DNA of 64,000 nt, taken from positions 64,001-128,000 of IMG/VR virus record IMGVR_UViG_3300045988_172839. One strand, written 5' to 3'. Below, in pieces: positions 13,377-34,254 of this stretch; position 1 is the first letter of the stretch; every line of letters begins with the position of its first letter. The position numbers were made by a program, and so were the translations under genes. Origin of the DNA: a virus. Under the pieces are notes generated by a model. It was not told the origin of the DNA. It saw nothing but the letters and a program-made list of their open reading frames with translations, and searched no databases.

Positions 13377-13379
13377 AGG

Positions 13380-14196: not shown

Positions 14197-14208
14197 GAAC
14201 TCACCTTC

Positions 14209-15231: not shown

Positions 15232-15234
15232 TCT

Positions 15235-15507: not shown

Positions 15508-15525
15508 TTGTTTTTCTCGCTTTCT

Positions 15526-16229: not shown

Positions 16230-16274
16230 GTTATACCTACTTTCTACAACTAACTTTTATCTTACTTTATTTTA

Positions 16275-19127: not shown

Positions 19128-19166
19128 TGGTTTGTCTCCTTTTCCTATTTCCCTTTAACTGTCTTT

Positions 19167-19195
19167 ATTATATCAAAAATAAGATACTTTGTCAA
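19167..19195 (-). promoter_or_regulatory. Consensus sigma-A promoter
   Basis: On the minus strand: TTGACA (19195-19190), a 17 bp spacer, then TATAAT (19172-19167). Confidence 0.75.
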
Positions 19196-19230
19196 GTACC
19201 TTATCGAAATTTATTCTAAAAGTCTAATTT

Positions 19231-20352
19231 TTAAAGCGTATCTTTTACTGGAATGTCCTTGAAACCTAAATTCTCCAAATGTTCAAGACAATCTGAGAAG
19301 TTGCAGAACAAGTCTAATTCCTCAGTTGGTTTATCGTAAGAGTCTATGAGACCTTCGGATACCGCTTTATCTCTTAGTTGCTTTCTGTACTTAAGAGCTT
19401 CTAGTTCCATAGGCAGACCTACGTTGTTTTTCATCATCAGAGGTTTAAAGTTTCCATATTTCGTTAAACCTTTCTCAACCTCTGGGTCGCAGTCCATCAT
19501 GAAATTATAAATCCAGTTCCAATGAGCTTTTTGACTTAAATTACGAATTTGGAAATACCAATCTACATAAGGCTCAACTTTTGATTTTTCAATCAAACCA
19601 ACTGCGTAACGCAAGTCGAAGTCATTTGTTGAACCAAGTCGATAATTACCAAACATCATCTGAACTCTACGACCACTACGAGCTGGTTTAAACTTGTTCT
19701 CGTCCATTTTCTGCACCATATAGGGCATATAACTATTCTTCAAAATAACGGAACCTAAACCATATTTAGGCGCTCTATTAGAGTGTGATGTAGACACTCT
19801 ACCTTTGTATAATTCAACTTTCGCATAAAATGTAACAACAGAACCTAAGTACAAAGCCATATCATTACACAAAGAAGCGTCAACCTCTGGTAAGAACAAC
19901 CACACATGACTTGAGAAAATCGGTTGATTTGGTATATCTTGGAAGTGTTTACTATCTTTACCGTTAGCTTCTTTAACTAACTGCTTAACCTCTGACTTCG
20001 TTCGAACCCCAAAAGTACCAACTAACGAGGGATCTAAAATTAGCAAGGATACCCCTTCTTTACTTTTTCGGACATCCGTTATCCGACCTGCTACTCCTAC
20101 ATAATGGTTTAAATAAGGTTGCAATCCAATACGACTTGAAGCAGTCGTATCAATTTTACCACCCTTCCATAAATTCAAAAATTCAAAGGCAGTAATCATG
20201 CCGTGTGTTTGCATCTCAAACGAAGTACGCTCTGCTTTTCCTTCTAACTTCGATAAGTCATTTACTCTACGAACCATAGAAAAAGGTGTGTAAACAATAC
20301 CTGTCTTAGGAGTTTTATTTCCTGATTTTTTCTTCTTTGGTTTCTTACCCAT
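19231..20352 (-). CDS. Hypothetical protein (373 aa) with lysine-rich N-terminus
   Basis: GTGAGGA RBS before the ATG. The N-terminus is MGKKPKKKKSGNKTPK. No catalytic motif was recognised. Confidence 0.7.
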   Translation of the reverse strand: MGKKPKKKKSGNKTPKTGIVYTPFSMVRRVNDLSKLEGKAERTSFEMQTHGMITAFEFLNLWKGGKIDTTASSRIGLQPYLNHYVGVAGRITDVRKSKEGVSLLILDPSLVGTFGVRTKSEVKQLVKEANGKDSKHFQDIPNQPIFSSHVWLFLPEVDASLCNDMALYLGSVVTFYAKVELYKGRVSTSHSNRAPKYGLGSVILKNSYMPYMVQKMDENKFKPARSGRRVQMMFGNYRLGSTNDFDLRYAVGLIEKSKVEPYVDWYFQIRNLSQKAHWNWIYNFMMDCDPEVEKGLTKYGNFKPLMMKNNVGLPMELEALKYRKQLRDKAVSEGLIDSYDKPTEELDLFCNFSDCLEHLENLGFKDIPVKDTL

Positions 20353-20393
20353 AGAAAATTCCTCACTTTCATTTAAGTTTATTTAGTGAGTTA

Positions 20394-20422
20394 ATTATAT
20401 CATAAAAAGGCTTGAAAGTCAA
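20394..20422 (-). promoter_or_regulatory. Sigma-A promoter with extended -10
   Basis: On the minus strand: TTGACT (20422-20417), a 17 bp spacer, then TGATATAAT (-10 at 20399-20394). Confidence 0.7.
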
Positions 20423-20449
20423 CAGAAGTGGGGAGTTAGAGGTCTTGGA

Positions 20450-20481
20450 GAACAAAAGCAAAACGCACCAAAATGGTGCGT
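20450..20481 (-). terminator. Rho-independent terminator
   Basis: On the minus strand: AACGCACC, loop ATTTT, GGTGCGTT, then TTGCTTTTGT. Confidence 0.7.
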
Positions 20482-20495
20482 TCCCTAACTCTAAA

Positions 20496-21710
20496 TTATT
20501 TCCCTTGCGTATAGTGTGCAAAGTAATTCGCCAAGTTGACTTGTGAGGATACCGCTGGTTTAGTTGAACCTTTAGTCTCTTTGTTAGACTTAGGAGTTTG
20601 AGTTCTTGCTGTACGTTTTGATTTTGGTTGATTGTACTCATTGTACACACCGAAAATACGCTCAAATTCAGATTTAACCTTAGAACCTTTAACTGCTCTA
20701 CGAGCACCTTTAACCTCATAAACCTCGTCAAACAAGTCTACCAGAAGTAACAAACCTTGTGGAAGAGCCAAGTTGAGACGGTCTTTCAACATCAATATCA
20801 ACTCTTCTGGTGTTTTGTCTGTTACCAACTTGTGTTTCAACAACTGACGAGCAACTTCTTCTTTCAAAGTCTCAGTCGAAAGCGCAAGACCAATCGCTAC
20901 AGACAAACGACTGAACAAACCCTCTGGGTGGTCAGGAACCAAAATACCTTCTCCACGAGCATCACGAACTTGAATAGCAAATTTAAAGTCTTTTGCAATC
21001 TCAGTAGCTACCTCTTCTGTCAACTCTGGGTGCAAGTCCATCAACTGACTTACAACAACTGGAAGAGCTTCACCGATACCAAGACGAGAGCCAATTTCTT
21101 TACAAGATTCATTCAAAGCAAGTAGACCCGGTTTTGTGAATACACGTGTTTCACCAATCGCAAATGGAACTTTAGGTACAGAACTCGGATTCTCAGCAGT
21201 AGACAAGAGACTTGTATTAGGTTGATAAATTACTTTCGGGTTCTCTTGTGAAACTAATACATCATCAAAAACTTCAAGTTCTTCAACCCCATCGTTTCGC
21301 AAAATATATCCTGCAATTTGAGTGGCGTCATAATACACACCACGTTTAAATACTCGAACTTTATGTACATTGGATTGAATAATACCCACTAGAGAAATAC
21401 CACCTGCTCTTGGAGCATTGTCATCACCCTCAGTAGTTAGGTTTGTAGCAGTCGGTTTTTCTTCTTTTGCTTTTGGTTTTTCAGTAGGTGTTACTGTAAC
21501 TGGTTTTCCTACTTTTTCTCCTACTACTCGACTTAGTGGCTCTACTACACATTCTTGTTCTCCATTTGGTTGAACTTCAACTGTTGGAACTGTATGAATA
21601 GGTGCAGTCGGTTTAGCAGTTTCTTGACCCAGTGCATCTGAAAGTGTTTGGGTTTTCTTTTCTTTCTCTGGCATTTTAGGACTGTTTCCTAAATTCAACA
21701 TTCTAACCAT
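20496..21710 (-). CDS. Hypothetical protein (404 aa) with P/T/E/K-rich N-terminal third and basic C-terminal tail
   Basis: GAGGT RBS before the ATG. Long ORF lying between the promoter at 21752-21780 and the terminator at 20450-20481. Confidence 0.7.
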   Translation of the reverse strand: MVRMLNLGNSPKMPEKEKKTQTLSDALGQETAKPTAPIHTVPTVEVQPNGEQECVVEPLSRVVGEKVGKPVTVTPTEKPKAKEEKPTATNLTTEGDDNAPRAGGISLVGIIQSNVHKVRVFKRGVYYDATQIAGYILRNDGVEELEVFDDVLVSQENPKVIYQPNTSLLSTAENPSSVPKVPFAIGETRVFTKPGLLALNESCKEIGSRLGIGEALPVVVSQLMDLHPELTEEVATEIAKDFKFAIQVRDARGEGILVPDHPEGLFSRLSVAIGLALSTETLKEEVARQLLKHKLVTDKTPEELILMLKDRLNLALPQGLLLLVDLFDEVYEVKGARRAVKGSKVKSEFERIFGVYNEYNQPKSKRTARTQTPKSNKETKGSTKPAVSSQVNLANYFAHYTQGK

Positions 21711-21751: not shown

Positions 21752-21780
21752 AGTATAGCATGCCAATAAATAAAAGTCAA
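21752..21780 (-). promoter_or_regulatory. Sigma-A promoter with extended -10
   Basis: On the minus strand: TTGACT (21780-21775), a 17 bp spacer, then TGCTATACT (-10 at 21757-21752). Confidence 0.7.
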
Positions 21781-21811: not shown

Positions 21812-22816
21812 TTATTTTGTGACAGATTCAATAACAACCTTATCTACATCAGATAATTTACGGTAACGAACAGTTACAGTGTCGCCTATTTTTAGTTGGC
21901 TTGCGGTATCGAAATTAAGGGATACCGAGATGGTAGTTGAGCCAACAGATAAGACTGCTTTATAGGTGGCAGCTAAGTCGGAATTACCTTCTAAATGTAA
22001 TTCTTTTACAACGCCTTTAGCAACTAAGACCTCAGACGAAACTTTTGCACCATCTAAGTTTTGAGTATTTGAAGTGGTTGGTTTACTTTCACTACCACCT
22101 AAGTTCTCAGCTTTCTCTTTTGGTTTCTCTTCTGCAGAAGTTGAGCTAGAAGTTTTCTCTTCTTTCTTCTGAGAACCTTCCGGGAAAATACGGTCACTGT
22201 CGGATACCGCTGACTTTTTATCTGTAGTTCCTTTCTCTACCTGAGTAACCTTGTTTTTCAAATCACTTGAAGGGTTTTGTTTTACTTTATTTGCTATAAA
22301 GACCATAATACCAAAGAGCAAAACTGCCACAATGACAACGGTTAAACCAATAGACCAAGGAGACCATTTCTTCTTAACTGGGTGTGCGCTTGCACTATTT
22401 TCTATTTGACCATATTGGTCATAGTGGTTAGAGTCGAACTGATTTTGGGGATACCCCTGTGGGTTTTGATTGAAACCATTAGGCTCAAATCCTTGATTAT
22501 TTTGGGAACCCCAACCTTCATTTTGTCCTTGGTTAAACCCTTGAGATTGTTGAAACTCATTTGGGTAAGGTTGTTGAGGGTGTTCATACCCAAAACCACC
22601 ACCTCTTTGACCTTGAGGTTCAAAACCCCCACGTGGATTGAATCCTTGTTCTTCCTCTAATGAACTAGTTGTCTCAGAACCAAAATCAGAAGAACCAAAC
22701 CCATCCCTTTGTGGTGAAGGTTGTTGGTGAGGTTGTTGAGGGGAACCCCAATCAGGAACCCCGTTCCAACCCCCTTCATTATTATCTCGATGTTGTCCGA
22801 AATTACGCTGACTCAT
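21812..22816 (-). CDS. Single-pass membrane protein with Q/N/G/P-rich N-terminal low-complexity domain
   Basis: GAGGTGA RBS before the ATG. Residues 1-140 are Q/N/G-rich (GFNQGQNEGWGSQNNQGFEPNGFNQNPQGYPQNQF). The TM helix is WSIGLTVVIVAVLLFGIMVFIA. A S/K/E-rich linker and a C-terminal beta-rich domain follow. Confidence 0.75.
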   Translation of the reverse strand: MSQRNFGQHRDNNEGGWNGVPDWGSPQQPHQQPSPQRDGFGSSDFGSETTSSLEEEQGFNPRGGFEPQGQRGGGFGYEHPQQPYPNEFQQSQGFNQGQNEGWGSQNNQGFEPNGFNQNPQGYPQNQFDSNHYDQYGQIENSASAHPVKKKWSPWSIGLTVVIVAVLLFGIMVFIANKVKQNPSSDLKNKVTQVEKGTTDKKSAVSDSDRIFPEGSQKKEEKTSSSTSAEEKPKEKAENLGGSESKPTTSNTQNLDGAKVSSEVLVAKGVVKELHLEGNSDLAATYKAVLSVGSTTISVSLNFDTASQLKIGDTVTVRYRKLSDVDKVVIESVTK

Positions 22817-23747
22817 TTACGGTCACCTCAATTCTTTTCATCTTCTGTTCAGTAGAGTCGAAACCTAAAGCATAGGTTTTATCGATGATACCGAGTTCTC
22901 CTGTTTCCTTATCAAATCGAAGAACCTCAACATAAACCTCACCTTCACGTTGGTAAAGTGTAATCTCCCCATTCTCACTTTCCAAATATAAGAAACGACA
23001 ACGTTTTTCAACTGTTTCCTCTAACTCTAAAGCTAACGCACCAACCAAGCGCATTGGATTGTAAGTAACACCAGTTGGAGGTCTACCTGCTAAATAGTCA
23101 GACCAAAGTGTAGATTGTCCTCTGAGAGCTTCTGAGAGAGCGTCAAATCCATTGTAAAAGTTTTTGCGTATAAATTCCTTTAGAGAATCTAAATCGCGAG
23201 GGATGGCATTCTGGAGCGTTTGAGGGTAATCGTCTAAAACGCACCACTCAATCAAATCTTCACTAAAGCGAGACAAGAACCTATCTTTAGCTTTGCTATT
23301 AAGTACAAACCTTACCGTATAAGGACTACCTACTGGTTTGTACTTCTCCAACATGACATTGAGCAAATCCAAATTGTGGTAAGCCCAAACCTTCTCTGCA
23401 AATGCGTTTAAAAAAAGTTGAACTAAAGGAACATAGACATCCGCTTTAACGTTTGCTAACACATCATCAGACAAAAGGAAAGGAGAAACCGTCAACGTAC
23501 CTTTCTCAATATCTACTGAGAAAGAGAAAGGAAATGCGCCTTTAAAGGAGATACCAAATTGGTTATCGCTTTGTCTTGATTTTACAAATCGAAGTTGCTT
23601 CAAAGAGTAAGTTTCAACACTTTGTAACTCATTTAACCCTTTGAAATATAAGTCAAAACCACATCTACAAGCACTTCTTAGGTCAGTACAACCTTCTAAA
23701 GCGTTTGAACCTAACATAATTTTGAAGTCATTTTTCTCATAAAACAT
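22803..23747 (-). CDS. Hypothetical protein (314 aa), ORFan operon member
   Basis: AGGTGG lies upstream of the ATG. Its 3' end overlaps the next gene by 14 nt. Confidence 0.7.
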   Translation of the reverse strand: MFYEKNDFKIMLGSNALEGCTDLRSACRCGFDLYFKGLNELQSVETYSLKQLRFVKSRQSDNQFGISFKGAFPFSFSVDIEKGTLTVSPFLLSDDVLANVKADVYVPLVQLFLNAFAEKVWAYHNLDLLNVMLEKYKPVGSPYTVRFVLNSKAKDRFLSRFSEDLIEWCVLDDYPQTLQNAIPRDLDSLKEFIRKNFYNGFDALSEALRGQSTLWSDYLAGRPPTGVTYNPMRLVGALALELEETVEKRCRFLYLESENGEITLYQREGEVYVEVLRFDKETGELGIIDKTYALGFDSTEQKMKRIEVTVNESA

Positions 23748-23771
23748 TTAACTTCTAACCACCTAAACTAA

Positions 23772-24338
23772 TCAAAACTTGAAACTATCTGAAAATGAAA
23801 ACTCTTGTACTTCATCTTTCACTAGTTCTACTGAAAATGGATCTTCGAGAGTAGAGTCAGAACTAACATCTTCTTCCAAATCATCAACAGTTCCCTCATC
23901 CTCATATTGAGGAATGTTGAAACCAGACAGAGGTACCTCAGAGATACCCTGTGTCTCCTGTTTTCGCTCTTGAACCATAGTAGCAAAATCATTAGTAGAA
24001 CCTTCTTGCAAGCCTATTGCAAACTGAGAAACTGCTTCGGAAATTCTTAGTTTATCAATTTCGTCAGCTCTTCTCATATACTCTTCGTTGAAAGCAAGTT
24101 GAGCTTGTTGTTCATACCTCTCAGTTGTACTCAAATGCTTTTCTTCAAAATGAAACCCTTCAGCTCGGTTGTTGGTACCGATACCGATGAGGTTTTCAGT
24201 TCGAGAAACCGAACCAACCGTGCGAAGTTGAGACTCAGAGTCACCATCTTTAATTAGAGGTAGAACCTCTTCATAACCTTTACGAAAGGTTGCTTTAGCT
24301 TTACGCTCTAAATAGTCTGAAACTTTCTCTACACTCAT
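23772..24338 (-). CDS. Hypothetical acidic protein (188 aa), ORFan operon member
   Basis: ATG ORF whose start overlaps the upstream stop by 1 nt. The C-terminus is very acidic (EDEGTVDDLEEDVSSDSTLEDPFSVELVKDE). Confidence 0.7.
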   Translation of the reverse strand: MSVEKVSDYLERKAKATFRKGYEEVLPLIKDGDSESQLRTVGSVSRTENLIGIGTNNRAEGFHFEEKHLSTTERYEQQAQLAFNEEYMRRADEIDKLRISEAVSQFAIGLQEGSTNDFATMVQERKQETQGISEVPLSGFNIPQYEDEGTVDDLEEDVSSDSTLEDPFSVELVKDEVQEFSFSDSFKF

Positions 24339-25309
24339 TAAGAACCTGCTTTCTTACTGCTATCTTCCGTCTCATGTTTTACCTGAGACTTCTTATCCTT
24401 ATTCAAGAGAGTGTTTGGGTCAAATGTAGAATCTTCAAAACCTTTCGGTCTACGAGAAATTTCTTCATCATATTCTTTCAGAATGTTGTTAATAACCGTT
24501 TCACCCTCACTGTACTTAGCGTAGTTGTCTAAGTCCATATCGTTTGAAACAAGCCAACCACCCGCGCCTGTTTTCATCAAGGTAATGTTTACTGTAATGG
24601 TTTTCTTTTGAGCTAATTCAGATTTCCAGTAGTTACTTACATACTCATACAAGAAGTTTCTAGCCTTCGTAGAATCTGCCTCAGTTTTACGATACGAATA
24701 AATACCTTTTAAAAGACCTTCGCGATCCTCTTTCCAAAAATCTTTATTAGACAAGTCCAAGGCTTTCAATTTAACCGTTACACTACTCTTATCATCCGCA
24801 AAAGTCGCCTGATTCTCGATACCCTCAATCTCTAAACTAAGTAGAAATTGTTGGTACATCCCCTTTTTAAAGGACTCGGAGTAAGTGAACTCTGCATCTG
24901 ACTTGAAGTAACCATTTAAGGTTTTCAATACTTGGTCTTTATAAGCATATTTCTGAGCAGTTGCAAAGTCCAAAGTAGATAGAGAACGTAAGAAAGTTCT
25001 TAAAACCTCAGTTTCAGACAAGTTTTGGTCTCCTAAAGCCATACGAGTACCTTCATCAGACCAATAATACCCTTCTCCTGCTTCACCGTACTTACGAATT
25101 AAACGCTTTTGCTCTTCTTCAAATGGAGTTAGTCCTGCGTTTTTATTCTTCGGTTTGTCTACTTGCTCTTCACTTGCTTTCGTCTCTGTGTTCGATTTCT
25201 TAGCTTGGTTACAAGCTCGAACCCCAAATAGTAATAATACAAGAGCAAGAACACCTAGAATGGTGTATCTCAACCCTTTCTTATCCCATAATTCTTTTAT
25301 TTTGTCCAT
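24338..25309 (-). CDS. N-terminally membrane-anchored protein (323 aa), ORFan operon member
   Basis: ATG ORF with the hydrophobic helix YTILGVLALVLLLFGV near the N-terminus. Confidence 0.7.
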   Translation of the reverse strand: MDKIKELWDKKGLRYTILGVLALVLLLFGVRACNQAKKSNTETKASEEQVDKPKNKNAGLTPFEEEQKRLIRKYGEAGEGYYWSDEGTRMALGDQNLSETEVLRTFLRSLSTLDFATAQKYAYKDQVLKTLNGYFKSDAEFTYSESFKKGMYQQFLLSLEIEGIENQATFADDKSSVTVKLKALDLSNKDFWKEDREGLLKGIYSYRKTEADSTKARNFLYEYVSNYWKSELAQKKTITVNITLMKTGAGGWLVSNDMDLDNYAKYSEGETVINNILKEYDEEISRRPKGFEDSTFDPNTLLNKDKKSQVKHETEDSSKKAGS

Positions 25310-25327
25310 GAAAATCTTACCTCAACC

Positions 25328-26590
25328 TTAAAATTCAAGTGTATCTGGAATAGTTACGAAATCTGAAGATACCGAACCACTTACACTTGCCATATCTGTG
25401 TTTCGACCAGTGATAAAGTTGTAGCGCTCTGGTTCTTCTTGAATCATGTCATACACAACTCTCAAATAGGCAGTAGAGTAATACTCAATACACTCACTAA
25501 AACGCATTTGAAACTCAATTAAAGACTTAATTTCAAACTTGCTTACACTTGTATCTACGTCAGACACCCGTTTCAATCGAGCCAAACTCTCTACTAAGAA
25601 CTCAGTTTGTCGCTCAAATGACCAATCTTTCGCTAAATGGTTAATCTGACGAACCATAGCGTCCTCAGACATGAGGGCGTAGCGTTTCAACTGTCTAATC
25701 TTCTTGTCTTGCTCTTCTTTAGCTAAGTAGCGAACTTCTCTGATACGACTCAAGGAAAGTTGTCTTTGTGGGTATTCCCCTTCAGCAATTCCTAAATCAT
25801 AGAAAGTTAAAAGCAACCGTGTGAGACCTTTCATAATCTTCACTTTGCTCTCTTGGTAAACCGAAGCAGCAGACAAAGAATACCCTACAGTCTCAAAATC
25901 TTCTAAGAGCAATGAACCTGTATAAAGTTGAACTGCTATCGAAGTGTCCGCAGTAATATTAAACTCTCGTAAAGACCCACCTACACGATGTGCATCAATC
26001 GTTACAATACCTTGTTTGGACTTCTCTTTGAGCTTAGAAACGTAACCGTTTACTACGGATACCGGGAGAACCATGTACTCCCCTTCTACGAAAGAAACCT
26101 TTTTTCTAGGAAAGGATAGTTTACCTTTAGACATACTAATTGTAGGGAAAGCAAGTAACCCTTGGTTTAAAGTGTCTCCGAAATCCTTGTAAATCTTACT
26201 CAAACTAGTCTTTTGTCGGTCAGTTACTTCAACTGCACTCTCCAATAAAGGCAAAGCCAAAGAACCAAAGCGAACATCTTGTTTTCCTAAATTAAATCCT
26301 TGCAACTCTTTCGATTTATGTGGCGAAGTCACTACATAACAATAAGTGTTAGCGAGCAACCACAAAGCAAAACGCAAGTCCTCAAACTTTTTAGAAGAGC
26401 CAATCTCAAAAGGCAAGTCATGGAGAGCTTGCGCTCGCATTTTCGCAATTAAGAGTTCTAATTGCGTTCCAGATACCGAGAAGCTAGGATTGAAACCCTC
26501 AGAGTTTAAAAACCCTAACGGTTTCCCTTGCTCTGCTAGGAACTCTCCCACCTTCCATAACAACTGCTCTTGTTCAATTTTAAATACCAA
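25328..26590 (-). CDS. Hypothetical protein (420 aa), ORFan operon member
   Basis: TTG start with AGGTGG 9 nt upstream. No Walker or other motif was seen. Confidence 0.7.
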   Translation of the reverse strand: MVFKIEQEQLLWKVGEFLAEQGKPLGFLNSEGFNPSFSVSGTQLELLIAKMRAQALHDLPFEIGSSKKFEDLRFALWLLANTYCYVVTSPHKSKELQGFNLGKQDVRFGSLALPLLESAVEVTDRQKTSLSKIYKDFGDTLNQGLLAFPTISMSKGKLSFPRKKVSFVEGEYMVLPVSVVNGYVSKLKEKSKQGIVTIDAHRVGGSLREFNITADTSIAVQLYTGSLLLEDFETVGYSLSAASVYQESKVKIMKGLTRLLLTFYDLGIAEGEYPQRQLSLSRIREVRYLAKEEQDKKIRQLKRYALMSEDAMVRQINHLAKDWSFERQTEFLVESLARLKRVSDVDTSVSKFEIKSLIEFQMRFSECIEYYSTAYLRVVYDMIQEEPERYNFITGRNTDMASVSGSVSSDFVTIPDTLEF

Positions 26591-26608
26591 TCGTCTAAAC
26601 CACCTATT

Positions 26609-27913
26609 CTAATCTGTAATCTTCTGCATCAACTTAGCAAACTCAATTCTTGGAATCTCACTTGTAAAATCTGGTAAACCTTCTTGAATACAGTTGAACA
26701 AGTTGTCACTGTACAAGACATACAAGAAACCAAAGTAAAGCTCAAATGGTAAATAACTCTCATAAAAACTTACATAAGCATCTGCTGAAATTTGTTTTGT
26801 TTTAGCGTAAAGGTCTGAAAACTCAGAGCTATTCCCCACCGGTCCGTAAAACCAAATATTTAAGAAATTTAGTTGAACCTCTAAACCAACCTTAAGTACA
26901 GATTTAAATACACTATCAATTTCAGTCGTAGGTAAGTTTATAACCCCACCTTTAGCTAAGATGTACAGAAAAACTGCTTCACCATACGTCAAATAGTGTG
27001 TTAAACCCCACTCAACTTGAACGTTACCGATATCATACTGAACACCTTTACTTGCAAACTGTTTGTAAGCATTTTCTCTTAATACAGAACCATTCAAGTG
27101 CAAGTACATAGAACCACCCACACCGTACTGATAAGGTAAATACCCCTTTAGTTGAGCATCAATAATAGCACGTGCATCTTCTACATCTACACTACTATCA
27201 AAATCCTCATAAACTTCAAGTGGACTTTCAACCTCCACCAACAAATGAGAAGGTACATTACCGATAAAGTTTTTAGAGTTCCCTTCTAATAGTTGCTTGC
27301 GCAACGACTCCCAAGACTGACGAAACTCAGAGCTATCTTTACGAGAACTCAACAAATCTTCCATTTCATCAGAAATGCGAGCAAGAGAACCACCGTTTGA
27401 ACCCTCATTGAGAGCTAATTCTAGCTCTTCCAAAGATTTAATATTAGACTTAACCTCTTCAATAAACTCTGTTTGGTCTTCTGTTAAATCAATAGAGTCT
27501 TTATCAATCAAGCGGTCTGCGACCGATTTGAAATTGGATACCCCTTTGAGAAGTCCTCGCTTGTCTGTGAAGACACCTTCAACTCTGAAAATAATTCCAC
27601 CTTCAGAAGTATTTAACTCCAAATCATAATCAGATAAATCATCATCTTGTGCAACTCGTAGGGTACTTAAACATTCCCAAAGATTATCACTAACCGCCAG
27701 AGGAAATGAAGAACCTTGTATAATTGTAAAAGTCAACTCCTCATCAGACTTCAACTGCTTCTCAACCTCAGCTTGCACTGACTTTTTCTTAAATTGTCGA
27801 GAAATGTTGGATACCGCAAGAGCTAATGCGTAACCACTTGGACTATAAGAATAACTTGTGTCCGTAGGGTTTGCAATATCTAACAAAGCCAAAACAACCA
27901 TTTTGTTTTGCAT
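26609..27913 (-). CDS. Hypothetical protein (434 aa), ORFan operon member
   Basis: AGGTGG lies 6 nt upstream of the ATG. No motif was recognised. Confidence 0.7.
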   Translation of the reverse strand: MQNKMVVLALLDIANPTDTSYSYSPSGYALALAVSNISRQFKKKSVQAEVEKQLKSDEELTFTIIQGSSFPLAVSDNLWECLSTLRVAQDDDLSDYDLELNTSEGGIIFRVEGVFTDKRGLLKGVSNFKSVADRLIDKDSIDLTEDQTEFIEEVKSNIKSLEELELALNEGSNGGSLARISDEMEDLLSSRKDSSEFRQSWESLRKQLLEGNSKNFIGNVPSHLLVEVESPLEVYEDFDSSVDVEDARAIIDAQLKGYLPYQYGVGGSMYLHLNGSVLRENAYKQFASKGVQYDIGNVQVEWGLTHYLTYGEAVFLYILAKGGVINLPTTEIDSVFKSVLKVGLEVQLNFLNIWFYGPVGNSSEFSDLYAKTKQISADAYVSFYESYLPFELYFGFLYVLYSDNLFNCIQEGLPDFTSEIPRIEFAKLMQKITD

Positions 27914-27916
27914 TTT

Positions 27917-28381
27917 CTACCACCTGTTTTCTTTCTGTATACTATTCAACGTACTCCAAAAGTTCTCTAACTCCCCAACCTCAGAAAAGATGGAACGTAA
28001 GTCCTCAGATATTTTCAACTCCAAGAAAGGTAGAGACAAACCCCCAAACCCTTCATGCAAAGTATCTAAGCTAAAGCGACCCTTTTCTGTACTTGGTACA
28101 ACTATGGAAATACTGCTTTGAATATCAAGTCCTCCAAATTTAGAGGAGATCACACTTTTTACACAGTAGGAAACTTCTCCAAGTCTTGCTCCGATTTTTG
28201 ATTGACTAGGTAGGATACCCTCAACTTCTAGTGGGTAAGAACCACCTACGCTGAAATAAACCGGTAAGAGCTTAAAGTCAGAACCTAGATAGTGAACCAA
28301 TTCAATATCCTCTGAGTCCAACTGCCTAAAGGACGAAGCTGCTAACTGCAGACCTCTTCCACAACTAACTATCCGAGTCAA
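27917..28381 (-). CDS. Hypothetical protein (154 aa), ORFan operon member
   Basis: TTG start with AAAGGAG 9 nt upstream. It overlaps the upstream gene by 17 nt. Confidence 0.6.
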   Translation of the reverse strand: MTRIVSCGRGLQLAASSFRQLDSEDIELVHYLGSDFKLLPVYFSVGGSYPLEVEGILPSQSKIGARLGEVSYCVKSVISSKFGGLDIQSSISIVVPSTEKGRFSLDTLHEGFGGLSLPFLELKISEDLRSIFSEVGELENFWSTLNSIQKENRW

Positions 28382-29591
28382 CGAGCGAGACTCCTTTCTG
28401 TTCTAATCTATCTAAACTACGCTTAATCAATTCTGTACGAGTTGGAGCTAAAGGTATTAACAACCCCTCTCCACCAAAGTACCTACCAAACATCTGAGAA
28501 AACTCTTTTAAATACTCTTCTAAGTGAACGTTCTTACTATGAAGTTGAGACTTGCTAACCATTTTGTAGAAAATCTCTTGTTTACCTTCTTCATTTCTTA
28601 GATAATATGGAGTTGCGCCCGCAAAGGATACCCTTGTAAACTCTCCACCCAAACCTTTGAAACAATTTGTGTTAGGTAGTGGTTTATCATTGTCGTAATC
28701 CCAACAAATATAGTTGTAATACAATGGGTAACTCTTTAAACCACCTCGTGAAAATGAGATTTTAAAAGGTGTAATACTCCTAACCATCAAGTCTGGGTCT
28801 TCTTTTTTGTACTTCTCTAACACCTTAGTTTGTCCTTTTAATAAATCCTCATAAACCAAGGAATAGGGAAAGTCTCCTTTGTCTGTTCGCAGAGAATCTA
28901 AGACCTTACTTATTTTCTCATTTTGAACCTCGATTGAACCTTTTAAAATCAAAGGCACTAAAGAAGACTCTTGTTTTCTAGTTACTCCACTTAGAAAAGT
29001 CCAACCTATAGGTAGGGATACCCCTTGCTCTTTAGCGACCTTTGTTAGAAATCGATAATACACATTATGTAAAGACTCTTCAACCTCAGTGTATCCGTCA
29101 TGAACCGAAATCTCATCATTCAAGGTTTTAGGCAACCATAAAGGTACTTCTCCTTTTTGTTTACCTTCAGAAACTTTGACTTGACGAGTTTGAGCTTTAT
29201 CTTTTAAAAACCCCCTATTTCTCAAGTCATTAAAGGAATATAAATTTTCTAAATAGTCCACTTCTTGCTTGTACTGTAAGTAAGAGACAACCAAGGTTAA
29301 ACCAACTTGAAAAGGATGATTAGTTTTTACAACCTTCTGAACATACTCCAAATAATTGAGATTTAACACCAAAGATACCGCACTGCGCTTATCTGTATAG
29401 TTAGTAAAACCTAAGTCTTTTAACTGAGCTACAACATATTGAGACAACTCAAATTTACGCACAATAGTAGGAGAGTAAGTTATTCCGTAGTCGTACAACA
29501 TAACCTTTAGGACTTCAACTGCGCTACGCATCTGCAAGTAACGATTGTACAAGTCTTTTGGTGTAATCTTTGTTTTCAATACACTGTTCAT
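28365..29591 (-). CDS. Hypothetical protein (408 aa), ORFan operon member
   Basis: The ATG overlaps the upstream stop (ATGA). Long ORF. Confidence 0.7.
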   Translation of the reverse strand: MNSVLKTKITPKDLYNRYLQMRSAVEVLKVMLYDYGITYSPTIVRKFELSQYVVAQLKDLGFTNYTDKRSAVSLVLNLNYLEYVQKVVKTNHPFQVGLTLVVSYLQYKQEVDYLENLYSFNDLRNRGFLKDKAQTRQVKVSEGKQKGEVPLWLPKTLNDEISVHDGYTEVEESLHNVYYRFLTKVAKEQGVSLPIGWTFLSGVTRKQESSLVPLILKGSIEVQNEKISKVLDSLRTDKGDFPYSLVYEDLLKGQTKVLEKYKKEDPDLMVRSITPFKISFSRGGLKSYPLYYNYICWDYDNDKPLPNTNCFKGLGGEFTRVSFAGATPYYLRNEEGKQEIFYKMVSKSQLHSKNVHLEEYLKEFSQMFGRYFGGEGLLIPLAPTRTELIKRSLDRLEQKGVSLVDSDS

Positions 29592-29962
29592 AGACTTACC
29601 ACCATTATTTCTTGCACAATCACACCATCTGGTGTAGGAGTTTCCATACGAGAAAATCCTTGAAGTTTACTGCTTCTTAACCACTGCTCTCTCAATACTT
29701 GGTATGTTTTAGCAGACAGAGGGTTTGCACATTTACAACCCTCTTTTTCATTATAAACAGTTACCGCAACCGAAGTGGATACCCCTTTGAGATATAAAAT
29801 AGAGAACACTTGAACAGGTCTATATCGTAGAAGAGTATTGCTATCTAAGTCTTCTAAGTCCATTTTCTTGATTAAACTGTGACTCTTATGTGCTAAGGTA
29901 TAAACCTTAGAACCTACAATGAACTCAACCCCAGCATTAAAAGGTTTGCTACGAACTAACAT
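29588..29962 (-). CDS. Hypothetical protein (124 aa), ORFan operon member
   Basis: AAGGAAG RBS before the ATG. First gene after the promoter at 30009-30037. Confidence 0.65.
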   Translation of the reverse strand: MLVRSKPFNAGVEFIVGSKVYTLAHKSHSLIKKMDLEDLDSNTLLRYRPVQVFSILYLKGVSTSVAVTVYNEKEGCKCANPLSAKTYQVLREQWLRSSKLQGFSRMETPTPDGVIVQEIMVVSL

Positions 29963-30008
29963 CTTCCACTTCCTTCTCTAATCTAAACTCTAAATTGCAT
30001 TTTTCTCA

Positions 30009-30037
30009 ATTTTACCATATTTAGAGGGAAAATGCAA
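30009..30037 (-). promoter_or_regulatory. Sigma-A promoter with extended -10 (internal to the ORFan cluster)
   Basis: On the minus strand: TTGCAT (30037-30032), a 17 bp spacer, then TGGTAAAAT (-10 at 30014-30009). Confidence 0.65.
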
Positions 30038-30060
30038 GATTTAGACGATAAAGAAATGAT

Positions 30061-31626
30061 TTATTTATTGGCAAGTTGTTCTTCAAACTTAGTAGTGAAT
30101 GTATTAAACACATTCATTAAGTCACTCAGAGACACACGTGGGTCAAGGATACCAAAGTAAAATCTCTCGATATTTGAGTAATCTGTCTCTAACTTCTCTC
30201 CTGACATAGTGAGAGCTGAACCATTACCAAAGTGATAAGGTTTACTATACTTACTAAATACTACACCACCGATAAATTTTACATCGTTTGTCCGAGGATT
30301 TTGTTTTTCTGCAAACCAAGATAACTTGTTATAAGCTAATTGGAAATCTAACTCACTTGTTGTATTCACTAAAGCAGAGTGAACCATTTCACCATATCCG
30401 TCTAAAGTGGCTTGTAGAGTAGCTACCCTTTCAAAGAAAGCAGACTCCATAAATTTTAAGATAAGGTCTTTCTCTTGAAGTAAAAGACCATGTTCACTAA
30501 CCATAGAACCTTTAATAGATGACCAGGCACCTTTATCTTTATCTTGTTCACTAATGTAAGGCACTAAATCCCCTAAAAGAGAGTACATATTGTACAAAGA
30601 TACCGCTCCGAAGGTGTTCTCCATAAATCGGTAACGTAAGTTGTGCGCTCTTTGTTGCTCCAATTCTTTTAAGAACTGCAAACGAAGAGAGACAGGTAAA
30701 GGCATGTTTAAACTATTAAACTCTCGAACAAACTTCAACAAATACTCAATCTTAGAAGTTGGTTTCGCAAAACCACCATCTACCAAACTTTGCCAAAAGC
30801 TAGGTAAGGCAAAGCCGAAATTCTTCTGATACCCTAACTGTTGACTATAAGAGTAAGCATAAGTCAACATTTCATTGAAATAGCGAGTACGGAAGCGTAC
30901 CAACTGATTTTGTACTTGACCTTCAATATTGAAGAAGTCTTGCACACAGTCTACTCCAAACTTCAAAACTTCTCCTGTGGCCTCTTCTTCGGCAACGAAT
31001 TCCCATTTAATGTCGTGACCTAATGTACATTTAGCGCCTATTTCAAAGTAGTTTAGCTCCTTGAAGAACCACGTTCCACCACCCATTAGAGTTGCTAGTT
31101 TTGCTGCTTTTTCTCTAAAGTAATCGGTGTCAGTATTTAACTCTAATTCAATTCTTTGAAGTCCTTCTTCATAAAAACTCTCTTGTAAGAACCAACGAGA
31201 CAAAAGTTTTCTCTTCTCTTCACTAAAAGTCTCAGAAAAATAGCGAACATAAGAGGATACCACTGGGTATTGTGAACCTTGGAAGTTCTTTAATACTGTA
31301 CTTGTTGTACGAGCTAAAACTGGAACCTTAATCGAACTGTTTTCACCCTCTTCAAAGTAAAGACCACTCTCTTTAATATGGTTCAAAACTTGTTCCGACA
31401 AGACTCTACTTTTATCAATAAAGGCAGTTGGTACACTAAAGGACTTTAGTTTCTTACCACTCTGCATATAAAATCCGTAGCGGTCTTTTTCTTTAAAGTG
31501 AATACAAACCACCTGTCTCGGACTCTCAACTCCAACATCAGCTAAGCTCTCAAACTCAGTTAATAGTTTAGCTCCACCATCTGTTAAGTGACTTTCAATC
31601 TCTCTAACTGGTTTTCGACTAACCAT
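30061..31626 (-). CDS. Hypothetical protein (521 aa), ORFan operon member
   Basis: The ATG start overlaps the upstream gene by 8 nt. Long ORF with no motif recognised. Confidence 0.7.
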   Translation of the reverse strand: MVSRKPVREIESHLTDGGAKLLTEFESLADVGVESPRQVVCIHFKEKDRYGFYMQSGKKLKSFSVPTAFIDKSRVLSEQVLNHIKESGLYFEEGENSSIKVPVLARTTSTVLKNFQGSQYPVVSSYVRYFSETFSEEKRKLLSRWFLQESFYEEGLQRIELELNTDTDYFREKAAKLATLMGGGTWFFKELNYFEIGAKCTLGHDIKWEFVAEEEATGEVLKFGVDCVQDFFNIEGQVQNQLVRFRTRYFNEMLTYAYSYSQQLGYQKNFGFALPSFWQSLVDGGFAKPTSKIEYLLKFVREFNSLNMPLPVSLRLQFLKELEQQRAHNLRYRFMENTFGAVSLYNMYSLLGDLVPYISEQDKDKGAWSSIKGSMVSEHGLLLQEKDLILKFMESAFFERVATLQATLDGYGEMVHSALVNTTSELDFQLAYNKLSWFAEKQNPRTNDVKFIGGVVFSKYSKPYHFGNGSALTMSGEKLETDYSNIERFYFGILDPRVSLSDLMNVFNTFTTKFEEQLANK

Positions 31627-32062
31627 AAGCTACACCCCATTTCTCGAACGTCCCATCTCCTTTAGACAAGGAACGTAGAATAACCTTCCATTGGTCAAAC
31701 TGAACTTTTTCTTCTAAGACTAGAGCCAAGCGAGAAAAATCAAGCGGATACCCTAACTGGTAAGCTTGTTTTAGAACGGTGTATAAAGCTCTGAAGAACT
31801 TGTCCTCTAAAACATCTGGGGAATTTGTTTGAATGTAACGTGTAAAACGTTCATAATCTACTACGAAATGTAAAGGACTGTTTTCAAACAATTCAACTAC
31901 ACCTTCATCCGAGACTGTAGACAAAACCAAACTAGAAGACAAGCGTTTTAGACGAAAACGCAAAATGTCTTCTTCCAAATACACTAAACCATAACCTACT
32001 AAATCATCTGACTGAGAATTTCCTTTTGGAAACTCAATCAGACCTACTAATTCTTTACTCAT
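31619..32062 (-). CDS. Hypothetical protein (147 aa), ORFan operon member
   Basis: GAAGG RBS before the ATG, with a 4 nt gap to the upstream stop. Confidence 0.65.
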   Translation of the reverse strand: MSKELVGLIEFPKGNSQSDDLVGYGLVYLEEDILRFRLKRLSSSLVLSTVSDEGVVELFENSPLHFVVDYERFTRYIQTNSPDVLEDKFFRALYTVLKQAYQLGYPLDFSRLALVLEEKVQFDQWKVILRSLSKGDGTFEKWGVAYG

Positions 32063-32066
32063 TCTT

Positions 32067-32966
32067 TTATCCTTCTTCTGCTAATGAAACCTCAAATGCT
32101 ACTGGGTCTAAGTCCATTGTAGGTTCTAATTCCTTGTAAGCCAAGTTGACAGTAGTTAAAATACCACCAATCTCTTTTTGAATAGTGAACTCATCACTAG
32201 GAAATGCTAAACCTAGCTCAACCAAACGGTTATACATAGACACAATTTGCTCTTTGCACTCTTCAACCGTATTTCCTACAAAGTAAATGTTCTTTGTCTC
32301 TGTATTTCTCATCCGAGAACGGTCTTGAACGACTAAATACACAGTAATTCCATTAGTTAGAACCACAGAGCGACCACCTAAATGGTCAGATACCCGTTTG
32401 AGAGATACCGTTACAACCTCAGTTTCAATTCGGTATAGAAATTCCTCCGCAATCCAAAAATACTGCAGAACTGCACCTTCCATAATCTCGTCTTGACCTA
32501 CATATTCAATCTGAGGGTCTGGGCTTTTATAACCATTGGGAATAAGAATGGCGCTTGCGCAAGCGATCAAGCGATACCCTTTAGGAGCTTTTACCGACTG
32601 TAAATTCAACTTAGAATAAGCCAAATGACCTTTCTCACTAAACTCTTTCTTAGTTGAAATAAAAACAAACTCACATTCTTCTAACTCTTTAAATAAATTC
32701 TCAGAGCTAAGTCCTTTAATTTTTACAAAGGAAAGCAATTCAGAACCTATCGGACTTTGAGTTAGCTCCAAGTGGTGCAGTCCAAAGACCGTTGGACTCA
32801 TAGACTTAATATAAGCCATTGTTTGTTTGAACTCTCTCTCAAATACCTTATCCATAAAAGGAGACTGAGAGAAGTGAGGGGTAACTGAATATACCCCTAC
32901 TTCCTCGAATTCAGCACTTACGTTAGGTGTATATGAGAACTGTTCCAAGTCTTCTTCCTCAAACAT
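32067..32966 (-). CDS. Hypothetical protein (299 aa), ORFan operon member
   Basis: GAGAGG RBS 8 nt before the ATG. Confidence 0.7.
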   Translation of the reverse strand: MFEEEDLEQFSYTPNVSAEFEEVGVYSVTPHFSQSPFMDKVFEREFKQTMAYIKSMSPTVFGLHHLELTQSPIGSELLSFVKIKGLSSENLFKELEECEFVFISTKKEFSEKGHLAYSKLNLQSVKAPKGYRLIACASAILIPNGYKSPDPQIEYVGQDEIMEGAVLQYFWIAEEFLYRIETEVVTVSLKRVSDHLGGRSVVLTNGITVYLVVQDRSRMRNTETKNIYFVGNTVEECKEQIVSMYNRLVELGLAFPSDEFTIQKEIGGILTTVNLAYKELEPTMDLDPVAFEVSLAEEG

Positions 32967-32983
32967 ACTACAGACCTCTCAAC

Positions 32984-33637
32984 TTAACTTTTGGGTTCTA
33001 AAGACATCACCACCACCAAAGCGTTGTTGTCTCTTGTCATCTCAGCTCCGACAAAATGTTGCTTATTTGGGATACCGAGAAGTTCTGCTGCCAAAGGAAG
33101 TCTACGACCACCTAATTCAACAACCAAGTTGTAATCGCTCATTCCTAGAATATTTACAGACAAGTTCGCAAGAGCTTGAAAATCTACTGCAAAAGCTGGA
33201 ATTTTCTCACCACTCAATTTAGTAGCTTGTGGGAGAGAGTTTGTACAGTAAATACCTACCTCAACTTTTGTTCCCAAAGGTTGTTTAGCCAATTTCTCTA
33301 AGAACTTACGAAAAGACTCAGCCGTTTTCTTTCTTTGAGCAATCGCTTTCTCTCTCATAGATTTGTCTTCTGTCAAGAACTCATAGGCTTGAATAGCACG
33401 TGTAAAATCAATCGAAGCAAGAGCCAACTTGTCATTTACAAAGTGATATTGGAAGTAATCTTCATTATCCAAAACACTCTTAAGCGTCTCATCTGTTCCT
33501 TGAACCAACACGTCAGACTCCAAGAAATTACGAGGAATTGGAGACCATGTGATACCAAGTTCTAAATTATTCTGACCGTGCATTGCAGGTAAAGCAAGTG
33601 CCATTTGACCTGTTGCTGATAGTTTGTTGTTAGCCAT
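32984..33637 (-). CDS. Hypothetical protein (217 aa), first gene of the ORFan operon
   Basis: GTGAGGT RBS before the ATG. It follows the terminator at 33731-33761. Confidence 0.7.
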   Translation of the reverse strand: MANNKLSATGQMALALPAMHGQNNLELGITWSPIPRNFLESDVLVQGTDETLKSVLDNEDYFQYHFVNDKLALASIDFTRAIQAYEFLTEDKSMREKAIAQRKKTAESFRKFLEKLAKQPLGTKVEVGIYCTNSLPQATKLSGEKIPAFAVDFQALANLSVNILGMSDYNLVVELGGRRLPLAAELLGIPNKQHFVGAEMTRDNNALVVVMSLEPKS

Positions 33638-33730: not shown

Positions 33731-33761
33731 ACAAAAAGAAAAGGCATCCGAAGTGGATACC
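33731..33761 (-). terminator. Rho-independent terminator
   Basis: On the minus strand: GGTATCC, loop ACTTC, GGATGCC (one G-U pair), then TTTTCTTTTTGT. The stem contains the GGTATC motif. Confidence 0.65.
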
Positions 33762-33774
33762 GAACACTGTGTGT

Positions 33775-34254
33775 TTATGGATTAACTAAATAAGCACCTA
33801 AATTGTTCAAATCATCAAAAGGGGATTGAAGTTGACCTTTGATAACCTTACGGAAAATAGGAACTCCTTCCGTACCTCGAGTTAATCGCTCAAAACTCTC
33901 TTCAGAAAAACCCCTAAAGTCCTCTACAGAGTCAAAGCCAATGTAATAAATCGACTTAGGGTCAATACCTTTATCTTTTAGGTTTACATCTAAGCGCCTA
34001 GCAAACTTCTGACAGTCTGGGCAAGTTGAAACCCCTACAAAAACATAAAATGTTTCTCCCTTGTCTGCTTTTGAAATGACTTCTTCTACTGTAGAGGGTG
34101 TAAATTGTTCAGTTGTTGACTTGTACTCTCTTACTGCGTTCTCTTGTAGCACTGTTTTAGCTCCCCAAAAGGAAATACCTAAAATGGCGATACCGAAGAA
34201 GAATTGTAACCAAGGTTTTACATCATAAAATTTTGCATTAAATTTCTTAGCCAA
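33775..34254 (-). CDS. Membrane-anchored thioredoxin-fold thiol-disulfide oxidoreductase (Bta/PedC-like)
   Basis: TTG start. The N-terminal TM helix is WLQFFFGIAILGISFWGA. A CPDC active-site motif sits in the context FYVFVGVSTCPDCQKF. Confidence 0.65.
   Translation of the reverse strand: MAKKFNAKFYDVKPWLQFFFGIAILGISFWGAKTVLQENAVREYKSTTEQFTPSTVEEVISKADKGETFYVFVGVSTCPDCQKFARRLDVNLKDKGIDPKSIYYIGFDSVEDFRGFSEESFERLTRGTEGVPIFRKVIKGQLQSPFDDLNNLGAYLVNP

Follow-up and report, generated by a model that had tools for sequence, protein, structure and literature searches.

Introduction

The plasmid pXO16 of Bacillus thuringiensis sv. israelensis (350 kb, also recorded as pBTHD789-1 or pAM65-52-2-350K) has been known since 1987 and was sequenced in 2015. 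It is experimentally conjugative, transfers very fast and mobilises 'non-mobilisable' plasmids, while its relaxase and origin of transfer (oriT) have yet to be identified, as have the functions of most of its genes (PMC9673590, PMC6199540). Its 'tip' locus encodes two ATPases and a hydrolase, a type IV secretion system (T4SS) distantly related to that of pCW3 (PMC9673590, PMC6199540), and its authors noted a phage-like gene organisation, together with conjugative transfer and no plaques (PMC6199540). The Inocles are giant extrachromosomal elements of oral Streptococcus from human saliva, about 350 kb long (range about 300-400 kb) with 95% of their genes unknown, which carry VirB4/VirD4, sortase and LPXTG proteins, IS elements and a marker, InoC, of about 454 amino acids (aa) with an N-terminal PF13814 domain (Kiguchi et al. 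2025, PMC12340149). They occur in about three quarters of people, and there is no stable culture system of host and plasmid (PMC12340149). Here we analyse 64,000 nucleotides (nt) of IMG/VR record IMGVR_UViG_3300045988_172839 (positions 64,001 to 128,000, hereafter the window), and in particular a block of thirteen genes, g1 to g13, that runs from 33637 down to 21812. Our analysis indicates that the block is a genuine operon and a module characteristic of a whole superfamily of giant plasmid-like elements in Firmicutes, which takes in the oral Inocle-type elements, pXO16 and further uncultured relatives.

The element itself is very likely an Inocle. A human oral metagenome contains a 238.7-kb contig with an exact copy of g4 and all of its neighbourhood, and homologues of g6 are found almost exclusively on oral-metagenome contigs of 200-295 kb, plus one contig of 477 kb. 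To the oral origin and the large contigs can be added further Inocle traits, namely AgI/II and LPXTG proteins, VirB4-like and FtsK-like genes and an IS607-type insertion. InoC (PF13814) was not found within the window or in the loci fetched with 10 kb on either side.

Results

A tightly packed operon

All thirteen open reading frames (ORFs) lie on the minus strand, as does almost everything in the window, and encode proteins of 124-521 aa (Table 1). An earlier note on this DNA, made from its letters alone, had described thirteen consecutive genes with strong ribosome sites and five overlapping junctions, and all of this holds: the overlaps are of 8 nt at 31619, 4 nt (ATGA) at 29588, 17 nt at 28365, 1 nt at 24338 and 14 nt at 22803, the last being that of g12 and g13, and a Shine-Dalgarno-like GAGGT, AGGTGG or AAGGAG precedes nearly every start. 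Where genes do not overlap the gaps are of 3-24 nt, with g4/g5 (98 nt) as the sole exception. Junctions of 25 nt or less make up 11 of 12 in the block (median 3.5 nt) as against 18 of the 45 in the rest of the window (median 90 nt; p = 0.002 by Fisher's test), so that the block is the tightest gene run of the window and its packing is not just the general style of the element.

A terminator-like hairpin followed by a run of T, between the preceding gene g0 and g1, likely bounds the operon upstream. After g13, a gap of 101 nt holds a promoter-like site, TTGACT-17-TATACT with the TG of an extended -10 (10 of 12 positions), which is likely the start of the next transcription unit, g14. The single internal promoter proposed earlier at 30009-30037 did not survive, being a 9/12 consensus match no better than chance when set against shuffled sequences; indeed promoter-like matches in the region show no excess at all, with 24 found against 28.7 expected from shuffles. 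No RNA element came up when the window was scanned with Rfam and for tRNAs.

Eleven of the products are soluble and two, g10 and g13, are bitopic membrane proteins, the only ones with transmembrane (TM) helices. None of the thirteen has a Walker A motif, and the tally includes no nucleoside triphosphatase (NTPase). Of the two membrane-associated proteins described in the earlier note, the anchor of one and the TM helix of the other were found, but they are the products of the tenth and thirteenth genes and not of the last two; the extremely acidic member that it picked out at 23772-24338 is g11. Since an all-against-all hhalign comparison of 17 families gave probabilities of at most 5.3%, g1 to g13 are not duplicates of one another.

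In g13 a low-complexity region of 149 aa, rich in Q, G, N and P and with nine FG or GF dipeptides, occupies the N-terminus; past the TM helix (aa 150-168) come a linker rich in Ser, Lys and Glu and then a small beta-rich C-terminal domain. The character of the cytoplasmic tail (aa 1-149) is kept across lineages, and it resembles prion-like or FG-repeat domains.

Conservation, selection and the ancient core

All thirteen genes recur in the same order in the loci L007 and L008 (88% identity), L005 (68%) and L004 (54%), found through their g6 homologues, each time with g0 ahead and g14-g16 behind, and the same arrangement is present in 22 IMG/VR loci. A more distant 162-kb element, L012, keeps g2, g4, g5, g6, an ORF at the position of g7 and g8 to g13 in order, followed by g14, g16, an AAA+ gene and a YdjM-like gene. 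The synteny comparison that the earlier note had proposed as a check thus finds the block order kept in all Inocle-like lineages sampled and in the distant L012. In the most distant contigs, L013 and L014, the order is g2 ... g4 - small ORF - g6 - small ORF - g8 - small ORF - g9; because it recurs at this distance, the soluble core g2-g4-g6-g8-g9 is ancient and has stayed linked, being contiguous in at least five lineages.

Against a relative of about 88% protein identity, the ratio of nonsynonymous to synonymous substitution rates (dN/dS) is 0.05-0.16 for twelve of the genes, and these low values mean that the genes are real and under purifying selection. The fastest-evolving member is g11, with a dN/dS of 0.36, only 31-45% identity between lineages and a homologue of 448 aa in L012. 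Separately, synonymous divergence (dS) between positions 18417-34254 of the window and L008 varies four-fold among neighbours, from 0.57 in g7 to 2.1-2.4 in g0, g3 and g10, which suggests mosaicism by recombination inside the operon. In L007 (15907-19162; GCA_015473165.1, BNJT01000212.1, 477 kb, long-read) g12 is split into 209 and 83 aa and g14 into 275 and 148 aa, and these splits are probably uncorrected sequencing errors, not pseudogenes.

Within the core, g2 has homologues in pXO16 (WP_000134297; hidden Markov model, or HMM, E 3e-18), L012, L013 and L014, as does g9 (WP_000358996 in pXO16, HMM E 5e-17). Those of g4 are longer than g4 itself in pXO16 (WP_000456290, 615 aa), L012 (777 aa) and L014 (870 aa), and across all of these and the Inocle proteins the residues C200-x3-H204 ... 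C227-x2-D230 are invariant; C200, H204, C227 and D230 may form a metal-binding site. The pXO16 counterpart of g6 is WP_000220763. For g8 the similarity is weaker, to WP_000543633 at the syntenic position in pXO16 (E 7.5e-4) and to proteins of L012 (2e-4) and L014 (9e-4). Among the small genes, g3 was not detected in L012, whose g4 is longer; a small ORF at the g5 position is recognisable in L012 (E 1e-4), and its counterparts in pXO16 (118 aa) and L014 (129 aa) are so by position only; and the ORFs at the g7 position in L012 (176 aa) and L014 (133 aa) have no detectable similarity to g7.

Megablast of the block against phage and plasmid collections returned nothing, tblastn with g4 found no relative in any phage record, and a scan of the GTDB species genomes with the g6 alignment gave no confirmed relative.

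Homology to pXO16 and a collinear transfer region

When g4 was compared by tblastn with 72,556 plasmids, only pXO16 matched. Six of the thirteen proteins have homologues there (g2, g4, g6, g9, g10 and, weakly, g8), at 19-40% identity and all annotated as hypothetical; homologues of g1, g3, g7 and g11-g13 were not found in the 122 kb of the 350-kb plasmid that were searched. The counterparts of g2, g4, g6 (profile E 3e-18 to 7e-17) and g8 stand in the same order as in the block, as g2-g4-(small ORF)-g6-g8, at about 296-302 kb; the aggregation region with its giant surface proteins lies about 6 kb upstream of them. Another 18 kb along (about 320 kb) comes the g9 homologue, and that of g10 spans the origin of the record.

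The resemblance extends to the genes of transfer. Eight proteins of the window form a transfer-type module that is collinear with pXO16 327-341 kb, and past the window start the stretch remains collinear with both pXO16 and a 190-kb element, L011. The shared run consists of an AAA+ protein (438 aa, 34% identity), a YdjM-like membrane protein (50%), two polytopic membrane proteins of about 300 aa, a VirB6-like protein, a hydrolase, proteins of 445, about 216/306 and about 410 aa, a VirB4-like protein and an FtsK-like protein. In the Inocle the part past the window start encodes the 445-, 216- and 409-aa proteins, an IS607-type insertion, a 726-aa protein with a Walker A motif (GMSGSGKS) and an FtsK/SpoIIIE protein. 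The 726-aa gene lies about 17 kb beyond the window start, and we call it VirB4-like on the strength of the Walker A motif, a weak DUF87/HerA match of its L011 relative and a phmmer match (E 3e-110) to a 678-aa protein of pXO16. In content the stretch agrees with what has been reported for the 'tip' locus of pXO16, two ATPases and a hydrolase (PMC9673590, PMC6199540). The spans compared were positions 3069-17591 of the window with L044 10648-20648, against L010 9234-31700 and L009 1-3182 of pXO16.

A single 1834-aa protein of pXO16 is represented in the window by two, of 1053 aa for its N-terminal and 849 aa for its C-terminal part (39% identity over 690 aa), and the same pair (window 4898-10624) is a single 1566-aa protein in L011, a case of gene split or fusion in the putative VirB6-like component of the channel. 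The IS607-type insertion (a serine resolvase with TnpB/OrfB_IS605; L044 13956-15861) sits between the 409-aa and VirB4-like genes.

The fold of g10 and its place in T4SS clusters

An AlphaFold2 model of g10, with a predicted local distance difference test score (pLDDT) of 86, is very confident and has a TM helix at the N-terminus, followed after a linker by an alpha+beta domain of NTF2-like fold. Foldseek relates it with a probability of about 1.0 to the Bacillus subtilis lipoprotein YcdA, the CaMKII hub and SnoaL/ketosteroid-isomerase-like proteins; the target-normalised TM-score is 0.5-0.59 to single-domain targets of about 120-135 residues, and 0.29 to the top match YcdA (322 residues). In sequence g10 matches neither the Pfam TcpC and VirB8 families nor any PDB sequence. 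A TM anchor followed by an NTF2-like ectodomain is the architecture of VirB8-like T4SS proteins, among which TcpC, PrgL, TraM and ConB are NTF2-like.

In pXO16, L011 and the seven IMG/VR loci L037-L043, the VirB4-like and FtsK-like genes flank an orthologue of g10; that of pXO16 (36-40% identity) directly precedes the FtsK/SpoIIIE gene. The collinear T4SS cluster of the Inocle has 195 nt between these two genes, and none of the frames there holds a g10-like ORF, so that the copy in the operon is the sole g10 orthologue found for this element. In the operon it follows g9 after a gap of 18 nt and overlaps g11 by 1 nt. Its place thus differs between two branches of the superfamily, a relocation: in one it belongs to the T4SS cluster, in the other it is part of the operon. 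The earlier note had recognised no enzymatic, capsid, tail or T4SS motif in any member, and no such family, nor one of defence, is in fact detectable in the thirteen; g10 would nevertheless be recognisable as a T4SS-cluster protein by its modelled fold together with its context.

The g6 family and searches across the block

An exhaustive HMMER search of 1.84 billion representatives found 21 clusters of the g6 family at 50% identity; the g10 family is broader, with 78 clusters at 90% identity. Structure models cover these two proteins of the thirteen. The structure search urged by the earlier note gave a divided answer, an NTF2-like fold for g10 and no neighbour for the g6 model, which is confident overall (predicted template modelling score, pTM, 0.73) and whose best Foldseek matches in PDB and BFVD have E 1.2 and 0.19 and TM-scores of about 0.1. 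Pfam gave nothing on all 22 g6-family representatives. The family has conserved motifs, WTFxxGxxRxxE, hhhhDxD (in most members, the DxD after a hydrophobic strand) and NxxxGxGGEF, and an invariant Y179, which suggest a functional site that we could not place in any family.

We considered whether g6 might be a palm-domain enzyme (GGDEF, reverse transcriptase or PolB), an AEP primase (hhhDhD) or Toprim/Spo11-like. The idea came from the WDYDN and GGEF motifs, the invariant Y179 and the flavour of the Foldseek noise matches, and it was rejected as unsupported, given that all such matches have E > 0.1 and TM-scores of about 0.1, that DxD is not universal, that GGEF is one residue short of GG(D/E)EF and that E208 lies in a helix in the model.

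Across the block, Pfam, PHROGs and PADLOC (the last run on ten of the thirteen, g1-g9 and g12) gave no credible match, the lone PADLOC match having an E of 0.033, which is not significant. Weak matches far below cut-offs (TFIID-31kDa, DUF7804, MAP17, phrog_22335, PDC-S02) were disregarded. PHROGs matched none of g1-g16, profile searches of PDB sequences with the g2, g4, g6, g8, g9 and g10 families found nothing, and Pfam detected no extra domains in the longer homologues of g4, g6 and g11 or in their neighbours in L012, L013, L014 and pXO16. The description of the genes as ORFans is to this extent apt, with no Pfam, PHROG or PDB match, but it does not fit six genes with pXO16 homologues, nor a family as broad as that of g10.

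As regards specific systems, a VirB4-family ATPase and a coupling ATPase (VirD4 or FtsK/TcpA) are absent from the block by both Walker A and Pfam, and the polytopic VirB6-like protein and the cell-wall hydrolase are encoded downstream of it. Pfam found no signature of SecA2, SecY2, Asp1-3, sortase or glycosyltransferase in the thirteen, and Pfam and PHROGs found no terminase, portal, capsid, sheath, tube, gp25 or baseplate family. A contractile injection system (an extracellular contractile injection system, a type VI secretion system or a tailocin) was considered from the pattern of gene sizes only, and has no family support.

Neighbouring genes

The operon lies between genes for surface proteins and the transfer-type module (Table 1). 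Upstream of g0 are the AgI/II adhesin in the window and in L007, an LPXTG protein with GtfA/GtfB in L005, and a helix-turn-helix/sigma-like protein with a 1006-aa surface-anchored protein in L004. The AgI/II adhesin and the 924-aa LPXTG protein of the window presumably recall the PrgB/PrgA aggregation/exclusion pair of pCF10. The window also encodes an intein-bearing ribonucleotide reductase, a clamp-loader-like AAA+ protein, an HU-like gene and a CHAP hydrolase. In the gene for the small subunit of the reductase (51981-55013, 1010 aa) the Ribonuc_red_sm match falls into three pieces accompanied by Hint and LAGLIDADG domains, indicating that it carries one or more inteins.

At least 29 contigs of the superfamily (L015-L043, 34-284 kb) are filed as viral genomes in IMG/VR. 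This is probably a misclassification, since g1-g16 and the large membrane proteins have no structural match in PHROGs and the relative pXO16 is conjugative.

Table 1. Features of the window and of related loci. Positions are those of the window unless a locus is named; pI, isoelectric point.
Feature	Position	Strand	Remarks
AgI/II-family LPXTG adhesin, 2083 aa	37462-43713	-	six C2-domain stretches
LPXTG protein, 924 aa	34420-37194	-	only other Pfam match weak, MscS_porin, below cut-off
g0, 159 aa, membrane-anchored, PedC-like (thioredoxin-like)	33775..34254	-	always before the operon in Inocle lineages
Terminator-like hairpin and T-run	33743..33761	-	between g0 and g1
g1, 217 aa, soluble	32984..33637	-	57-91% identity; present in all Inocle-like lineages
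g2, 299 aa, acidic, soluble	32067..32966	-	core member
g3, 147 aa, soluble	31619..32062	-	seen in Inocle lineages only
g4, 521 aa, soluble	30061..31626	-	core member
g5, 124 aa, basic (pI 9.3)	29588..29962	-	
g6, 408 aa, basic (pI 9.0)	28365..29591	-	core member
g7, 154 aa, soluble	27917..28381	-	64-91% identity in Inocle lineages
g8, 434 aa, acidic	26609..27913	-	core member, weakly conserved
g9, 420 aa, soluble	25328..26590	-	best-conserved soluble member (68-90% among Inocles)
g10, 323 aa	24338..25309	-	TM anchor aa 11-29, predicted extracytoplasmic NTF2-like domain
g11, 188 aa, acidic (pI 4.4)	23772..24338	-	
g12, 314 aa, soluble	22803..23747	-	conserved in Inocle lineages and L012
g13, 334 aa	21812..22816	-	conserved in Inocles and L012
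Promoter-like site	21752..21780	-	in gap after g13
g14 (404 aa), g15 (373 aa), g16 (236 aa)	18417..21710	-	always after the operon in Inocles; gaps 100-140 nt
Transfer-type module	3069..17591	-	collinear with pXO16; eight window proteins
Putative VirB6-like protein, 849 aa	4898-7447	-	at least 5 TM segments
Cell-wall hydrolase, CHAP/GDSL	3069-4781	-	counterpart in pXO16 weakly NlpC/P60
PF02739 exonuclease and ArdC-like neighbours of the core	L013 11580-12602 and 4960-5976; L014 3032-4165		

Discussion

How could thirteen proteins that match no family be tied to a function? We tentatively favour, at somewhat less than an even chance, the reading that the operon encodes an accessory sub-assembly of a pXO16-type conjugation apparatus, set between the adhesin genes and the T4SS genes. 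This apparatus is a T4SS distantly related to the Tcp system of pCW3. Its envelope channel would be built of the VirB6-like protein, the hydrolase and the VirB4-like and FtsK-like proteins encoded 10-40 kb downstream, and g10, with its VirB8-like architecture, would together with g13 link to that channel as membrane connectors. The eleven soluble proteins (the core g2, g4, g6, g8 and g9 with their small partners) would make up a complex in the cytoplasm, docking onto the channel or readying the substrate for it, while the upstream adhesins would supply the mating-pair contact. It is the gene packing that suggests a stoichiometric complex. Operon structure, conservation, selection, homology to pXO16 and the fold and gene contexts of g10 are observations; mutual assembly of the proteins, a role in transfer and any biochemistry of the soluble core are what we infer.

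Several lines of evidence speak for this reading. The operon sits between surface adhesins and a transfer module collinear with that of pXO16, whose own core likewise follows giant surface proteins; g10 has an NTF2-like fold and T4SS-cluster orthologues, its operon copy is the only one found in the Inocle, and it and g13 are coupled to the soluble genes; the order of the genes persists in L012 and in lineages of as little as about 50% identity, and dN/dS is 0.05-0.16 for twelve of them; and pXO16 is conjugative by experiment, while Inocles carry VirB4 and VirD4 (PMC12340149). Several points weigh on the other side. No member apart from g10 is tied to transfer beyond gene neighbourhood, and for g10 itself VirB8, TcpC and PrgL are not among the top 50 Foldseek matches, while NTF2-like lipoprotein domains are common outside T4SSs. 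In pXO16 the core, g9 and g10 are in three separate places, with the core apart from the T4SS genes. In both L013 and L014 the core adjoins a 5'-3' exonuclease (PF02739), and in L013 also an ArdC-like antirestriction gene (ArdcN and MPTase-PolyVal), neighbours that would fit DNA metabolism or establishment equally well. Finally, we know of no Gram-positive T4SS that needs such a set of eleven soluble proteins.

A bolder version would make the soluble core and its small partners an undescribed complex for DNA processing and delivery, working with g10 and g13 at the membrane and feeding the pXO16-type T4SS, in place of the relaxase and oriT that have never been found in pXO16. We consider this unlikely as matters stand. 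If true, such a complex would explain the fast transfer of pXO16 and the movement of oriT-less plasmids and chromosomal DNA, and the same machine would operate in the Inocles, which most humans carry.

The exonuclease next to the core would fit a rival reading, in which the soluble core is machinery of replication, repair, segregation or nucleoid organisation, with g10 and g13 as passengers or tethers. The block lies upstream of the clamp-loader-like AAA+ and HU-like genes, with a ribonucleotide reductase in the window, and genes for gyrase, a DnaB-like helicase and a primase-like protein are nearby in pXO16 and related elements. The g5 and g6 proteins are basic, the conserved residues of g6 include acidic ones, Arg and Tyr, and the top Foldseek matches of g6 are pieces of polymerases, reverse transcriptases and replication initiators, all insignificant. 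Set against this, no NTPase, nuclease, polymerase, primase or DNA-binding domain was matched at any threshold, the g6 matches and its DxD motif fail as described above, and two proteins with extracytoplasmic domains are translationally coupled within the operon. We regard this reading as unlikely.

We think it quite unlikely that the operon serves the biogenesis of the giant adhesins upstream, that is their export, folding, modification or anchoring, by analogy with the accessory Sec/Asp systems. A large surface protein and the PedC-like g0, of thiol-disulfide type, do precede the block in every Inocle lineage checked, GtfA/GtfB glycosyltransferases are upstream in L005, and the pXO16 core follows the aggregation adhesins. 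However, the thirteen are free of the Pfam signatures expected of such a system, the adhesin changes between lineages while the operon is constant, the core of L013 and L014 has no obvious adjoining adhesin, a terminator-like hairpin parts g0 from g1, and elsewhere the g10 orthologue lies inside T4SS clusters.

Leading-region genes of conjugative plasmids act early in the recipient or protect the element, and the block might be an establishment, anti-defence or defence island of this kind. In L013 the ArdC-like gene adjoins the homologue of g6, the acidic composition and fast evolution of g11 are frequent traits of DNA mimics, and all genes have one orientation. On the other hand there was no PADLOC match in the ten proteins scanned, the block contains membrane proteins with ectodomains, and its strict order and the strong purifying selection on twelve of its thirteen genes are unlike variable defence or anti-defence islands; we rate the idea as quite unlikely.

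That the elements are or descend from jumbo phages, the block encoding divergent parts of a virion or injection device, seems most improbable: for all the IMG/VR filing, the phage-like organisation noted for pXO16 (PMC6199540), the look of a structural module with many coupled genes and no enzymes, and the alternation of sizes of about 150 and 400-520 aa that superficially recalls tube and sheath sets, there is no PHROG match for g1-g16 and no Pfam match to sheath, tube, gp25, portal, terminase or capsid, the g6 model is unmatched in BFVD and PDB, relatives of g4 are absent from the phage records searched, the enrichment of Inocle DNA in cells relative to the 0.45-um filtrate is 16-fold (PMC12340149), and pXO16 moves by conjugation, with no plaques found.

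Returning to the conjugation reading, what of the previously undescribed machine for which the earlier note made the block the best candidate in the window? Given the pXO16 homologues and the T4SS-cluster context of g10, a free-standing machine fits the block less well than a dark portion of an apparatus of known kind, namely the pXO16-type conjugation system, itself poorly understood. The Inocles (since 2025) and pXO16 were already known, and the block is not yet demonstrably a new machine. To our knowledge, what is new relative to published accounts is the thirteen-gene operon, the five-gene core common to Inocles, pXO16 and other giants, the collinear T4SS region and the relocation of g10. 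The shared module offers a marker set for recognising a superfamily now filed as viral in IMG/VR, and, should it turn out to belong to a transfer machine, Gram-positive conjugation would gain a large group of new components.

Comparison with known systems

At the level of single proteins the nearest comparison is between g10 and the VirB8-like proteins (TcpC of pCW3, PrgL of pCF10, TraM of pIP501, ConB of ICEBs1), with which it would share a short cytoplasmic N-terminus, one TM helix and an NTF2-like ectodomain; it is unlike them in having neither a sequence match nor a top-50 Foldseek match to any of them. At the level of gene arrangement the block presumably resembles the prgQ operon of pCF10 from Enterococcus faecalis, in which the LPXTG adhesin/exclusion genes prgA, prgB and prgC are followed by packed T4SS genes on the same strand. 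The pCF10 genes after prgC encode mostly membrane proteins and ATPases that Pfam recognises, whereas here eleven of the thirteen products are soluble, none is an ATPase and none matches a Prg or Pcf family.

With the Inocles the window has in common its human oral source, operon copies that are exact or nearly so, AgI/II and LPXTG proteins of streptococcal type and a GC content of about 37%. It differs in that InoC is not in the window, and the published account mentions neither this operon nor pXO16 or Bacillus (PMC12340149).

The Inocle-type element and pXO16 differ in that identity is 19-40%, the pXO16 homologues are spread over three loci and not one operon, and its g10 lies between two T4SS ATPase genes. 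On the other hand, both are giant elements with genes in one orientation, mostly unknown, and with their own gyrase and helicase (PMC6199540), the homologues stand in the same order downstream of giant surface proteins, and the transfer module is collinear. Because they share both the dark module and the T4SS cluster, the function of the Inocle operon can be tested in the tractable pXO16.

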